DNA of 64,000 nucleotides from Eledone cirrhosa (lineage: Eukaryota): positions 186,124,001 to 186,188,000 of the forward strand of contig OZ024740.1 in NCBI GenBank assembly GCA_964016885.1, in the 5' to 3' direction. Positions within the stretch are counted from its first letter, which is position 1; each line of letters begins with the position of its first letter. Positions 1 to 62,246 of the stretch are shown here, piece after piece. A model generated the notes under the pieces. It made no database searches. It saw nothing but the letters and a program-made list of their open reading frames with translations, and was not told the origin of the DNA. Made by a program: the position numbers and the translations under genes.

Positions 1-1922
1 TGCTGGTAATGTAATTCTCAGACGGTTTCAAAGTGATATCATATATGCCAAGAATTGACCTTCAAATAACAGATAAAACACTGGGAGAAAATCAATCGTC
101 ATCCCCTCTCTAGTACTGGAGTTGAAATTAATCTTTAGACATACCGCAAGACATTCTGCTATGTCTTCTATTTCAATGATTCGCAAGAGCACGAACGTTT
201 TGAATGCACACGATTAAGGATTTGCATTATAGAAGATAGCAAGAGTGTTTTATTTCTTTATAATGATATATTCATAGATGGGAATAAAGAAAAAATAAAA
301 TAGTTTTCTTTTCGTTTCGTTATGAAAAATATTTCTTCTGAAGCAGCGAGGCTATCCATATGTTTATTGTTCACCTCTATTATGCTTACACGCTGCTATT
401 CCCTTTATATCATCTACTTCCCTGCTAACACAAATACAACGAAAGAGATCGCTGTAGTAAAACTTTTATCGTTCCCTTATCAAACACAAGGATCTTATCA
501 GTCTGAGTAATGCACAACGATTAATGAGGAGTCCAATGAATGCCGTCAGAATAATGCCTAGGAAGAAATGGTACACTACGAAAGTAGTAATGGGATGACC
601 TGCTTAGAAAAAATATATATTCACTTGGCGAAGTTTGCACGTACTAAATCAAATAATCTAGGCTTCATGAAAACAGGATGATAAATAAAAAGTAAAAAAT
701 AAAAGCTAGAATTGTGAATTGAAACATATTTGGTTCGGTTAGGGTTTACTATTTCTGTACGCTCTCTTCACTTAAATATAGAATATTACCTTTCCATTAT
801 GTGCAGCTATACATTATCAGTTTTTGATATTATGCTTTTATATAACCGTTATATATCGAAATATATAAAAGCTATATCAAATGCTTGAACGACAGAAACG
901 GTTTCTTACAACGCCATGAGAAATATAAGAAAAAAAGTCTATACAATTTTGTCTTAATATTTATCGATTGATCTGAGAATTACATTTCTTCCGCTTAGAT
1001 ATCTAATTTTAATGCAAATACTATTAATTATATGCAAATTTCTATATTTACAATTTGCTATCATATTTAATGGTCACATTTTGGGATGAGCAATTAGCTG
1101 GCGTGTTTTACCGTTGAATTAACAACTGGTGTTTATACATTGATATTTGCATAAACTTCTACTTTTCATTCAATAAAAGTTCTTAAGATATGTTTGAAAT
1201 ATTTTAAACTAGTTACCTTTATGTTTTAAGATTATCTCGGTGAAATATCGCCTATAAAGATAAAATCTAGAGTTTAAAAATATTCTGTGCGTATGCTACT
1301 GACAAATATTATTAAAATATCGAAGATCGATTCATTTTAATATGGAATAGAGATGAATTTTTTGTCAAGTATGATATAAATATATATATATATATATATA
1401 TATATATATATATATATATATATATATATATATGTGTGTGTGTGTGTGTATATATATTTAAATATATAATTTATATATATATATATATATATATATATAT
1501 ATATATATATATATATATATATATATATATATATATATATATATATACATTTTTTCTCCAAGATAATTGAATGCATACATATATTTTTTGGGGGTAGGTG
1601 TATTTTTTTCTCACTCTCTATCTCTCTATTTCATCTTTAATTTCAAGCCGCAACTAATATATTTCTTTATTGTACTGTGTTGTTTACTTTGTTATTTCTG
1701 TCTACCTTTTGCATATACACACACAGACACACACACATATATATATAGTAATAATAATATTTATATTTATATATGTTTGATATAACTATAAATATGTAGG
1801 GTAGTCCTAAGGACTAGCCGGTTACCGGTATGACAAAAGGCTCAGTGCAAATTGTCAAGTGTTTTACGGAGCCGAGATACAAAGTGTTAAAACGATCAAA
1901 TTTTAGTTTAGAACATTTATTT

Positions 1923-1967
1923 GCTGACAATTGTTTCTTCCAGAGGAAAGTATGGGATCATCGGAGC
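1923..1967 (-). ncRNA. Minimal hammerhead ribozyme motif (CCGAUGA core variant)
   Basis: Minus strand reads gct-CCGATGA-tcccatactttcctctggaa-GAAAC-aatt-GTC-agc, then aaataaa. Helix III is the palindrome ACAATTGT. Confidence 0.65.
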
Positions 1968-2203
1968 ATAAGGAATGTCGAAACATGTAACAAAAATCCT
2001 AGTCATTTAGAACATTTAGGGTACACAATTGTTATTAGTGTCAAAGGCATCAATGTGGATAGTCAGGAGTTAAGAAAGATGTTCTGCTTGAAAGAACACA
2101 ATTACAGACAGCACTTGTTGGAAGTGTAATAGGTATAAGTAAAAAGCACAAGCAAAGAAATCACAAGCAAAAAAAAAACACAGACAAAACAGCTATAAGC
2201 AAG

Positions 2204-4240
2204 TTATAAATATTGAAGCCCGTAGTTTAATATGTAAATTAGGACTAGAGAGATATACTCAACCGTACACCTCTAATTCCCCCAGGATTCTCTCTGAAAG
2301 ACCATAAGGATGATTTCGATATCAACCCCTCAATTAGACTTATTTGCCCATCCAGATCCGATATTGGCATCATTAGTAAAAAAAATTTAAATAAAATAAT
2401 GCCCCAAGTTAAACAAAAAAATCATTTTAACCTCTGGGGAAACACCAGTGAAATAATCAAATGGTTTATTGGTATTAATGAAAATAATAATAAGAAATCC
2501 ATCCAATTTGATATAAACTCCTACTACACCTCTGTTTCTCCTATCTTCCTAAATAAAGCATTAATAATGGCCATTAACAATAATGAACTCACTAGATCCC
2601 AGATAGATATAATCCTTGCGGCCAGGAAAACAATAATTAAATTTGAAGACCAACTATGGACCCGCAAGAGTACACCCAACAACTTCGATATCACCATGGG
2701 ATCTAGTGACTCGGCACAGGTAACCGACTTAGTCGGTCTATTTTTCTTAAACGAAATACACAAGAACCTACCTTTCCTCAACGGTGGCCTCTACCGTGAC
2801 GACGCACTTTTCCTCTTAGACTATAAAAAGTTCAATATAGAAAGAACTAGAAAACAATTACATCAAATATTTAAAACTATAACTTAGGTATCACTTTAGA
2901 TAAAAACACCAAAAATGTTAACTTCCTGGACGTCACTCTCTTCTTAGTCTCTAAAAAATACACACCTTATCATAAACTTAATGAAAAACCTTTCTATGTG
3001 AATACCAACTCTAACCACCTTAAATCTGTACTGACCTCAATCATTAAAGGTGTATCTAATAGAATCTCTAGCCTTTCTTACAACGAGAATACATTTAATC
3101 GCAACTCCCATTACTATAATGAAGCCCTAGCCCGTTCCGGCCATAGAGATAACATTAAATTTAAACCTAAATCGTCAACTAACCATAGACAACCTAATAT
3201 AATTTCACATAACATGGCCCTGAATAAAAGTAAATATGATCATAGTATTGAAAATCCTGACTCCTATACAAAGGACACAAAAAAGTAAAATCACACCACA
3301 GCAATAATAGTAAGAAACACCACAGAAAGAAAAATATAGATAAGAAGGAATCTAACACCACACTAAACAGTAGTATGAATAACAACCATAAGAAGAATAG
3401 AAAAAGAAATGGCACATTTTCTAACCCTCCGCTCAACCTAATTGTATCAACAAACATACCTAAAGCTTTCTTCTCTACTCTAGACAAAAATTCCCAACTA
3501 ACCATAAATACCACAACATATTTAACAAAAACAAAATTAAAATCGCCTACTCCACCACACCTAATATAACAGACCATATAGCCAGCATCAACAAGAGAAA
3601 CATTAAAAAGTACTTCAAATTACACAAAGTAATAATGTCCAGCATAGAAATAACCTGAACAATAACGAGTACAAGACCATACAGCAAGTCATACTAATAA
3701 TACCAATAATAATAATACTCTCCATAATCATAATACTAGAAGTAGAAAGAGAATCAACCACTCAAATGCATACCCCCTTAACCAGTATACTAGTTACCAA
3801 AACAAATGTAATTGTAGGCCTAACAAGATATGCCCATTAAATAAGAACTGCCTAATTAAAGACATTGTTTACTCCGGTACTGTAACCGCTAATCACATCT
3901 CGATAGTATATATAGACTCAACATCGAATAGCTTTAAAACCAGATATAATTCACACCTTCATTCGTTTAGAAACCCTAAACATAGCAACGTAACCTCACT
4001 ATCCACATACATACACTCATTAAAATCAAGTAATATACCATACACCATAAAATGGGAAGTGATAGCTAAGACCCCTTCATATAGACCACCTATCACATTT
4101 TGTAACCTTTGCATACTCGAGTTTTAAAATATTATTCACTCTAACCTTAGCCTACTAAATAAGAAATCAGAGATCTTCTACACATGTCCACATTACCATA
4201 GATTCTCGTCCACTACATCAAACCGAGTAACTAATAATAA
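2204..4240 (+). pseudogene. PLE reverse transcriptase + GIY-YIG endonuclease, frameshifted with stops
   Basis: Motifs read: KDHK..RLICP, FDINSYY, FDITMGSSDSAQ, GLYRDD, VNFLDVT, CNC/CPL linker, VYIDST..FKTRY..H, WEVI, CNLC..E, LNKKSE. Confidence 0.9.
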
Positions 4241-4409
4241 TAATAATAAAAATAAAAGTAAAGACCAATGTCGGAGATAACACTAGACCACCACCTTTTA
4301 ATTTATCCAACAAGACCTTCATTTATCCCACTAGACCCATACACACACAAAAACAAGATGGCGTAGGACAGAACAAAGGCGAGGCACAAAACAAAGAGAA
4401 GAATCCCCA

Positions 4410-61200: not shown

Positions 61201-61548
61201 CACAAGAATTTCTGCTCAGATTCTATCGGCCAGGTTTCAATTCACAAGACTTCGAAGATGATTTCCCAAAGTACTATGCCGTAAAACCGAAACGACGTAA
61301 CGTATTTTTGAAGAGAACTTTGTATCCATAGAAATACACACAACTATGATTATAACTTATACTATATTTCAATAATTCTATTGAGATACATAGACATAGA
61401 AACAAAAGATGAAGTTCCCATTAATAATAAATCATAATTTAATAAACTATAGAATTACGAAATTAAATTTACCGACACTCATAAACACTGTCCATTTAGT
61501 CAGACAATTAAATAATTTATTTATGTATATATATATATATATATTTAT

Positions 61549-61744
61549 ATAGGAACCAGTAAGACCCCGACAGCTGAGCTCAAGCCGTTTCGACGGCTAA
61601 TTCTGAGTCCAGAATTAGCCGTCGAAACGGCTTGAGCTCAGCTGTCGGGGTCTTACTGGTTCCTATTACCCACTCTACTACCTCAAGTATTGAGTACTTT
61701 GGTGCGTTATGGTCCACCTGGTTCCTTACCACATTTCCTTCGTT
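61549..61744. repeat. Perfect 57 bp-arm hairpin fused to the 31.8/32.3 kb family tail
   Basis: 61549-61605 mirrors 61610-61666 around the loop agtc. GAAAC lies at 61624. 61664-61744 matches 32244-32324. Confidence 0.93.
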
Positions 61745-62017
61745 ATATATTTATATATATATGTGTGTGTGTAGGTAGGTGTATATATGTATATGTGTGT
61801 GTGAGCGTGTCCGCCTGTATAAATGTATGTATGACGTATTTATATATATATATATAAATATATATATATATAAATATATATATATATATATATATATATA
61901 TATATATATATATATATATATATATATATATATATATATATATATATATATATAAAATATATATATATATATATATATATAAAATATATATATATATATA
62001 TATATATATATACATAT

Positions 62018-62246
62018 ATATACAATATATTAACAAATGGAAACAATATTTATAAAACCATATTTATTTCATTATACATATTTCAAGGGCCACCAAAGCA
62101 GATTATGGTGCGCTTTCTTCAGATGAAATATAATATAGATTAGTTTTATAAATAAATATTGACATACTCTGAAGAAAATGCAACCTTCACGGTTGAAGTC
62201 TCCTGGTTTTATAAATATAGTTTCCATTTGTTAATATATTGTATAT
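62018..62246. repeat. Inverted repeat (~43 bp ends) enclosing a hammerhead-like motif
   Basis: 62018-62060 mirrors 62204-62246. Minus strand 62070-62125 reads cat-CTGAAGA-aagcgcacca..tggtggccctt-GAAAT-at-GTA-taatg-aaataaa. A partial CTGAAGA lies on the plus strand at 62169. Confidence 0.7.

Follow-up and report, generated by a model that had tools for sequence, protein, structure and literature searches.

The sequence studied is a 64,000-nt stretch of the Eledone cirrhosa genome (GCA_964016885.1, contig OZ024740.1, forward strand, 186,124,001-186,188,000), hereafter the window, and coordinates below are positions within it. An earlier note on this DNA had reported nine fold-back palindromes in or beside (AT)n, and self-BLAST of the window recovered all nine, with arms 82-97% alike over the reported matches. 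Together with an element at 1748-5807, these make up ten families, F0 to F9. AT-rich microsatellite flanks all ten window elements on both sides, as had been described for the palindromes, and each element carries a one-sided tail, which the earlier coordinates had left out.

F0 (1748..5807) is a 5'-truncated Penelope-like element (PLE) with broken RT-EN ORF pieces at 2249-4230 (+), an inverted tail-bearing pLTR on the minus strand (tail 1748-1876, arm 1877-2203) and a tail-less pLTR on the plus strand (5488-5807) with a decayed hammerhead at 5720. The F1 palindrome (8272..8743) comprises a tail (8272-8411) and left arm (8412-8570) on the minus strand and a right arm without a tail (8584-8743), and its hammerheads, with a U3-A8 core, are both slightly decayed (8653, +; 8502, -). 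The F2 palindrome (20551..20797) bears its tail on the left arm (20551-20617) and has a long-stem-II hammerhead core at 20707 (+) that is decayed in the window copy and intact in sister copies; its 3' 50 bp and tail are related to F5. F3 (22324..23224) is a head-to-head insertion of a putative tandem retrozyme monomer of ~480 bp with internal (AT)n, carrying an intact hammerhead at 22664 (-) and a tail on the right arm only (23163-23224). In the F4 palindrome (32462..32700), the left arm (32462-32535) lacks a tail, the right arm has a hammerhead and a 66-bp tail, and a short tandem duplication sits at the apex.

F5 (36302..38517) derives from a young PLE whose 3' UTR is TG/TA-rich; its arms are inverted, with a tail on the left arm only (36302-36377) and hammerheads at 36456 (-) and 38439 (+, intact). 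The F6 palindrome (38573..38923) has a tail-less left arm (38573-38685) and a right arm with a long-stem-II hammerhead (core 38711) and a 78-bp tail (38846-38923). F7 (39077..39490) is a palindrome of the pLTR of a Neptune-like PLE, with two intact minimal hammerheads (39225, -; 39301, +), an AC-rich 41-bp tail on the right arm (39450-39490) and an apex close to a TATA-linked start site. The F8 palindrome (61551..61744) is tailed on the right arm (61665-61744), and in each of its arms just the 3' half of a hammerhead is present, of the U3-A8 type and with a 6-bp stem III. An F8 tail also occurs alone at 27574..27653 (-), with (AT)n on both sides, and ends at the inner RT start site. F9 (62027..62332) has a tail-less left arm (62027-62206) with a hammerhead at 62122 (-) and a right arm of merely 34 bp followed by a 95-bp tail.

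A strict type I hammerhead descriptor found six intact motifs in the window, versus a mean of 0.3 and a maximum of 2 across 30 dinucleotide-shuffled versions of the window minus its microsatellites. Five of the six lie inside palindromes and all five face outward, and across the collected loci, opposite-strand motif pairs no more than 700 bp apart with no intervening (AT)n were outward in 28 cases and inward in none, whereas pairs with (AT)n between them were mixed (4 outward, 6 inward). The outward polarity claimed for the ribozymes thus stood. The accompanying claim of a motif, or its 3' half, on both arms held in part: only 39085-39441 is strictly intact on both arms, while the remaining elements carry decayed copies of motifs intact in sister copies or, at 61549-61666, the 3' half alone on both arms, and the right arm of 62018-62246 has no hammerhead at all, a CTGAAGA sitting on the wrong strand of its left arm. 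Similarly, the AATAAA said often to follow the motif was seen by eye in five of the ten families. Among the 150 Rfam matches listed, no palindromic motif was called, and a solo hammerhead at 20346-20390 scored 29.1 bits, under the cut-off of 34; the same search returned many sub-threshold miRNA matches in the window. The hammerhead in the pLTR is supported by the descriptor, by folding and by sister copies, with single-fold shuffle z-scores being weak (+0.75 to -1.9).

Sister loci were taken from best-hit searches, with the best 40 of 139-1,977 candidates scored, a sampling that favours young, long arms. The proposal that the palindromes are head-to-head pLTRs made by PLE machinery was borne out by these loci: RT/GIY-YIG ORFs lie upstream on the same strand in eight of the ten families, i.e., these eight are the 3' ends (pLTRs) of RT/GIY-YIG PLEs. 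EN was found upstream on the same strand in 13/30 F1 loci, upstream in 9/24 F4 loci and, as an EN end ~1.9 kb upstream, in 3/20 F6 loci, and single sister loci link the same EN to the F0 pLTR (L213, E 4e-60), RT-EN pieces to F5 (L189) and EN to F9 (L194). Such linkage was not seen for F3 or for F2, in which we found no ORF and PLE protein matches in 0/16 loci. Pfam recognised GIY-YIG in F7 (E 7e-7), other ORF pieces being weak or without a Pfam match, and many of 239 homologues have RVT_1 and GIY-YIG within a single protein. F7 also has a CX4CxxC linker ahead of GIY-YIG, a Neptune/Nematis trait (PMC8557442). A fixed 3' end with an optional tail, variable 5' truncation and an inverted 5' copy are all present, and 291 of 319 outer ends fall at an (AT)4 run, versus 9% of random window positions; because the ends lie inside (AT)n, target-site duplications are unreadable. 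Longer sister copies extend into the RT and GIY-YIG ORFs, and solos are frequent, accounting for 47 of the 80 centred loci in four families. The palindromes are therefore the shortest representatives of a continuous series of 5'-truncated PLE insertions, most of them probably dead ends, and not the distinct pLTR-only units, replicating as such, that the earlier note had envisaged.

The retrozyme comparison made earlier holds for one family alone, and that family is tandem. F3, from its sequence, is predicted to be a tandem, non-coding non-LTR retrozyme, the sole one among the ten families. Its monomers measure 475-488 bp, and the longest ATG ORF (64 aa) crosses the (AT)n; locus L201 holds an 11-unit array with a hammerhead motif in every unit, and L202 and L203 hold long runs.

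The tails, 40-140 bp long, follow a near-constant rule. Among 97 close arm pairs (of 99, two at locus edges being left out), 87 have one tail, five have both (L114, L124, L153, L162 and L164) and five have none, three of these last showing a diverged tail by eye. As the F4 and F6 search queries included the tail, body-body pairs of families with a tail-free query were also counted, and 52 of 59 were one-tailed (p=7e-10 versus the 50% ceiling of independent choice). The rule holds for 11/11 F2 pairs with the window element counted in, for 4/4 resolved cases in F0 and for 11/11 resolved clusters in F3, which therefore ties the retrozyme to PLE machinery.

The less 5'-truncated arm is the tail-less one in 20 pairs and the tailed one in four, with 27 ties, and length differences run to hundreds of bases in both directions: an excess of 262-1,650 where the tailed arm is longer and of 269-1,058 where the tail-less arm is. 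Since either arm can be longer, neither arm copies the other, and this, together with one tail per pair, is consistent with two RT start sites being used and with priming from each strand of the target. The mutually unique arm sequence argues against the published idea of self-priming with an antisense template (PMC3846280), by which the inverted arm would arise from fold-back of one strand and a staggered endonuclease cut would leave the tail at one end. That explanation accounts for variants common to both arms (in 60 of 68 cases the two arms resemble one another more than they do other copies, which gene conversion could also produce), for the symmetric apexes (38/85, loops ≤12 nt) and for two-tailed palindromes such as L164 and L124. 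By its fixed strand polarity, though, it predicts that the unpaired centre is always associated with one end type, and the differences go both ways; 47/85 apexes are asymmetric, loops of 0-2 nt (13/85) are too tight for simple fold-back, and fold-back would not give untemplated inserts between two run-off ends. We regard self-priming as unlikely.

Less probable still is that the palindromes form a self-standing class, transcribed and reinserted whole. Their very high numbers could suggest this, exact-pattern F8 micro-palindromes alone amounting to 1,502 with none in a reversed-pattern control, as could three F7 units with a common apex and two F8 units with unrelated flanks that share a one-arm variant (L297 and L319), a hint that some units were copied whole. 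Identical apexes at many loci, proposed earlier as the mark of replicating units, were not found: 82 of 85 apexes are distinct, as are the match strings of 93 of 100 F8 units. Moreover, among the same-apex F7 units the tail occurs in both polarities, the apex they share being a fixed 5' end, and whole-unit reinsertion sits poorly with the continuum described above. Clusters of 5' ends were retained only for F7 and F9, those in F1, F4, F6 and F8 being discarded because they coincide with query or reference edges. A further rival, MITE-like DNA transposons or assembly fold-back artefacts, is very improbable. Short inverted repeats in a TA context do look alike, and such palindromes are easily mistaken for MITEs or miRNA hairpins, but here the ends are asymmetric, the apex is variable, the arms differ by 3-7% and the partner is an RT, the arms continuing into RT-EN ORFs; this ORF linkage refutes the DNA-transposon reading for eight of the ten families. 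In contigs of two other runs, both 3' ends adjoin (AT)n, with strand-switch joints in one run, which speaks against an artefact. RAD-seq read ends were left out of the analysis as likely tracking restriction sites. On both points the earlier note was upheld.

Where an arm stops is most informative in F8, whose examples came from incidental copies and from a pattern search that caps total length and requires a tail on one side; the units examined are the first 100 of the 1,502, and every one of these 100 lies on contig C1. Clean (unambiguous) junctions gave 106 arm ends, of which 39 fall on the predicted cleavage nucleotide, 10 at -1 and 2 at +1, against a background of 2.4 per position. Both arms end at the predicted cut site in 19 of the 100 units (20 counted, L261 removed by eye), with A/T-rich untemplated bases at the junction, and these represent 17 distinct junctions in four sub-variants. 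The lowest-energy fold of the full motif is a type I hammerhead in 4/9 full-length copies. Ends at the predicted cut site with untemplated A/T suggest cleavage in vivo, and the spike is likely a trace of ribozyme activity in living cells. Cut-site ends were not seen in the other families, whose samples are biased to long arms. For the cleavage step alone, RT stalling or repair at a G-run or the stem III base is a possible but doubtful source of the spike: the site adjoins a GC-rich hairpin and a PLE in vitro used uncleaved RNA (PMC11167929), but stalling at stem III should leave ends at +1 (2/106) rather than 0 (39/106), and untemplated A/T additions mark run-off ends.

Given these results, we consider it probable that each palindrome is a 5'-truncated PLE-end insertion, or a retrozyme with the same end signatures, made by two-strand priming at (AT)n. 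The element's endonuclease would introduce one nick into each strand of an (AT)n tract, and reverse transcription on the element RNA would be primed from either nick, one cDNA beginning at the outer and the other at the inner of two fixed start sites. Both cDNAs would extend toward the 5' end of the RNA, for which we infer a single shared molecule, and would then join 3' end to 3' end via microhomology or a few untemplated bases, yielding a head-to-head repeat in which one arm is tailed. Arms would have random endpoints, or would end at a promoter-linked start in F7 and F9 or at the hammerhead cut site in F8, the last suggesting that self-cleaved RNA sometimes serves as template. A tailed-arm stall exactly at the inner start site was sought and not demonstrated, 4/50 tailed F8 arms stopping there. 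We lean slightly toward a fuller, joint reading, namely that twin priming is obligate, with a dimeric RT-endonuclease on one RNA assigning one target strand to each start site, that the same machine mobilises a tandem retrozyme, that one or more PLE hammerheads undergo self-cleavage in the germ line, and that ~300 micro-palindromes, a figure scaled up to all 1,502 from 19 in the first 100, were copied twice from the cut 3' fragment. An Anolis PLE studied in vitro has a predicted dimer and two RT start sites that delimit its tail; counting against coupling, neither start site showed a strand preference, and counting against a cleaved template, uncleaved RNA was the dominant substrate with no reads at the cut site (PMC11167929).

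How PLE inverted repeats and tails form, and whether PLE hammerheads act in vivo, are questions named in PMC8557442 and PMC4209133. The thousands of small natural products in this genome constrain the mechanism through the one-tail rule, the single-nucleotide spike at the predicted cut site and the PLE footprints on a retrozyme, all three of them directly testable in the existing in vitro system. Inverted pLTRs, an optional tail and opposite-strand hammerhead pairs are already published (PMC4209133, PMC3846280, PMC8557442); less expected than this architecture are the one-tail rule, a retrozyme obeying it and the F8 cut-site ends. Our literature search, with most subscription papers, supplements and Repbase notes outside its coverage, did not turn up any description of twin priming, of a one-tail count, of cut-site ends or of tailed retrozymes.

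Canonical EN+ PLE insertions (Arkhipova 2013, PMC3846280; Craig 2021, PMC8557442) share with the Eledone cirrhosa elements an RT followed by a C-terminal GIY-YIG, 5' truncation, an adjacent inverted copy, a tail often at one end, AT-rich/(TA)n targets and TATA/Inr-like pLTR motifs. In contrast to the 30-40 bp described for those insertions, the present tails span 41-140 bp; a single tail for every insertion is near-strict across ten families, and the arms carry mutually unique sequence, which speaks against self-priming. F3 resembles non-LTR retrozymes (Cervera 2020, PMC7229834; Li 2026, bioRxiv 10.64898/2026.07.22.740005) in its non-coding tandem monomer, one type I hammerhead per unit and dispersed arrays along with long satellite-like runs. 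Its ~480-bp monomer exceeds the 170-400 nt quoted in PMC11722881, and its arrays have a PLE tail and inverted arms, of which the searched passages of PMC7229834 and 10.64898/2026.07.22.740005 make no mention. The hammerheads share with minimal PLE hammerheads (Cervera and de la Pena 2014, PMC4209133) a type I fold, a palindromic loop III, an extra base before stem II and the U3-A8 variant; Schistosoma mansoni, too, is known to have dual motifs, separated by 100-700 bp and lying on opposite strands (PMC4209133). F8, with its 6-bp stem III and long stem II, is nearer the monomer-active fungal type (PMC4209133), and its insertions end at the predicted cut site, whereas the same paper states no in vivo evidence for PLE hammerheads. 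Finally, the Poseidon PLE of Anolis in vitro (Frangieh 2024, PMC11167929) likewise cuts and extends both strands at AT-rich targets, with an AC-rich tail between its two RT start sites; that system showed neither start-site coupling between strands nor use of cleaved RNA, whereas the genomic record of Eledone cirrhosa suggests both.

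Self-BLAST of the window recovered all nine fold-backs listed in the earlier note, and their (AT)n setting was borne out. Here the elements are called F0 (1748-5807), F1 (8272-8743), F2 (20551-20797), F3 (22324-23224), F4 (32462-32700), F5 (36302-38517), F6 (38573-38923), F7 (39077-39490), F8 (61551-61744) and F9 (62027-62332). The outward-facing hammerheads or 3' halves described for both arms are generally present, except on the right arm of 62018-62246. Strictly intact motifs number six in the window versus 0.3 in shuffles, and the polarity check upheld the earlier claim, as opposite-strand pairs without intervening (AT)n were outward in 28 cases and inward in none. 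Every element also carries an extension of 41-140 bp on a single arm only (hereafter the tail), which the earlier note overlooked. At the base of stem II, the F3, F4 and F7 hammerheads have U facing U versus the usual G10.1-C11.1 pair, and in F6 C faces A. With regard to a fold-back artefact, the arms are asymmetric and differ by 3-7%. In contigs of two other runs both 3' ends adjoin (AT)n (X1 possibly being what the assembly itself was built from, and hence no independent evidence), and strand-switch joints occur in contigs of one of the two runs, from another organism.

The genome (3.0 Gb, 1,796 contigs) was searched with one arm per family, and the best 40 of 139-1,977 candidates were scored for each; the F8 arm retrieved no match, not even the window's own F8 copy, so that search is uninformative. 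Copies within families are mostly 90-100% alike, with a variable 5' end and a fixed 3' end that adjoins (AT)n in 291/319 cases versus a background of 9%. Longer copies have RT and GIY-YIG-type ORFs upstream on the same strand (F1, 13/30 loci; F4, 9/24; F6, 3/20; F5, 2/24; F7, 2/30; F0, 1/16; and single loci for F9, L194, and F8, L197). Against Pfam, the F7 protein matches GIY-YIG above the cut-off and RVT_1 below it; its homologues often hold both domains in one protein, and bivalve proteins are among the named closest RT relatives. For F2, no ORF was found among 16 loci, and its 3' end and tail are common to F5. F3, a non-coding monomer of 475-488 bp in head-to-tail arrays, is by its sequence features a non-LTR retrozyme.

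Among 97 close head-to-head pairs from seven families, 87 have one tail, five have both and five were scored as having none, although three of these last have a diverged tail by eye. One tail was likewise found in 52/59 body-body pairs from queries without tail bias (p=7e-10 vs 0.5), in 11/11 F2 pairs, in 4/4 resolved F0 pairs, and in 10/10 F3 clusters with both ends resolved, plus an 11-unit array; solo copies carry it in 24/54 cases. The arm reaching further 5', sometimes by >1 kb, is the tail-less one in 20 pairs and the tailed one in four, with 27 ties. Since either arm can extend further, each often holds sequence absent from the other.

Identical apexes at many loci would have pointed to replicating units; there are instead 82 distinct apexes among 85. 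Apex junctions are overlaps, blunt joins or short inserts, and both arms come from the same sub-variant in 60/68 pairs. F7 arm starts lie within 15 nt of one position in 35/46 cases, ~30 bp below what we take to be a TATA motif and CCAAT-like boxes, and 19/65 F9 arm starts cluster below a presumed octamer-like motif; both clusters are probably transcription starts. In two mixed palindromes a tail-less F7 arm meets, head-to-head and without intervening (AT)n, the tailed arm of an F4 copy (L107:1045-1641) or of a diverged F3 copy (L013:1156-1687). Their joints hold an inverted F7 stretch of 8 bp and ~30 bp, respectively, and may reflect a switch of template from one RNA to another or a subsequent deletion. 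At another locus, L026, a 44-bp F6 piece sits at an F7 apex.

In the full F8 motif, a U3-A8 core is combined with a long stem II and a 6-bp stem III, and the hammerhead is the predicted lowest-energy fold in 4/9 full copies. Because four short F8 arms start at the predicted cut, the genome was searched for a micro-palindrome pattern, giving 1,502 matches and 0 for the reversed-pattern control. Junction analysis covers the first 100 matches, of which 53 have at least one untemplated base. The 106 arm ends at these 53 junctions fall at the cut site in 39 cases and at -1 in ten, with 2.4 per position elsewhere. An RT stalling at stem III could be proposed as the source of this spike, but it predicts ends at +1, where only two lie. 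The simplest reading would be that RT ran off self-cleaved F8 RNA, twice; both arms start at the cut site in 19 units, with 17 distinct junctions mostly joined by 1-6 A/T-rich bases. The F8 copy in the window itself does not belong to this cut-site type.

Absent from the earlier list is a mirror duplication centred on (TA)n at 31816-32335, whose arms (95% alike) each comprise an inverted F8 tail and a deleted F8 end, facing inward rather than outward. Solo ends with a hammerhead, from further families or from diverged ones, lie at 20346-20390 (-), 4414 (+) and 22168-22299 (+); among the Rfam matches listed, Hammerhead_1 appears for the first of these alone (E 0.005, below cut-off). Elsewhere in the genome, satellite-like F3 runs fill most of two 9.9-kb stretches (L202 and L203; G000 C4, ~212.91-212.94 Mb), and another hammerhead-bearing family of tandem and inverted repeats, a possible second retrozyme, is nested in the (AT)n of an F5 copy (L187:2100-3900). 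The window also holds nested non-LTR retrotransposon copies with (ATT/TTA)n trinucleotide ends at 41531-49342 (-), presumably R4/Dong-like, with a 787-aa frame matching RVT_1 (E 1e-29). An RT fragment (11588-12430, +), a LINE with an AP-endonuclease match (49539-54316, +; E 5e-8) and two transposase-like fragments (19303-19941 and 57241-57681, -) we take to be RTE, L1/Tx1 and mariner, respectively. A ~175-bp SINE-like repeat, very common also in the fetched loci, occurs at 16278-16455, 24705-24854, 25041-25233, 27694-27878, 30379-30539, 41197-41498 and 63661-63860, and an inverted repeat beside (AT)n at 10229-10863 includes a tRNA-like stretch (10321-10393; Rfam tRNA, 35.6 bits).

A mechanism may be sketched from five observations: the sequences are those of Penelope-like elements (PLEs), the hammerheads face outward, a pair has as a rule one tail, the two arms vary independently in extent, and F8 arm ends spike at the predicted cut. 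A portion of PMC11167929 describes a PLE protein that cuts and extends both strands, starting at two sites bounding the tail. Both nicks would prime, because (AT)n reads identically on either strand, one using the inner start site and the other the outer; both would probably copy a single RNA bound by a dimer. Joining of the two cDNAs at their 3' ends would then follow, making outward polarity automatic. Counting against this mechanism are the five pairs with both tails, the in vitro results in that portion of PMC11167929, which include neither strand coupling nor a cleaved template, and the nature of the loci as best-hit samples. Gene conversion is also possible, and the pair L297 and L319 hints at whole-unit copying. 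With these counts, twin priming by PLEs, mobilisation of the retrozyme and ribozyme cleavage in vivo can each be put to a direct test.

As described in sections of PMC3846280 and PMC8557442, a known PLE insertion consists of two truncated copies, the second lying in inverted orientation at the 5' end of the first. Given copies with a fixed 3' end, a variable 5' end and RT/GIY-YIG ORFs upstream, the palindromes are, judged from sequence, the shortest form of this insertion. The palindromes listed in the earlier note are real and of PLE type; their architecture was already known and is found here in new families. The U3-A8 variant was already reported in part of PMC4209133, as were dual hammerheads with one motif on either strand, and the comparison extended to portions of PMC7229834, PMC8969392, PMC11722881 and the Li 2026 preprint.
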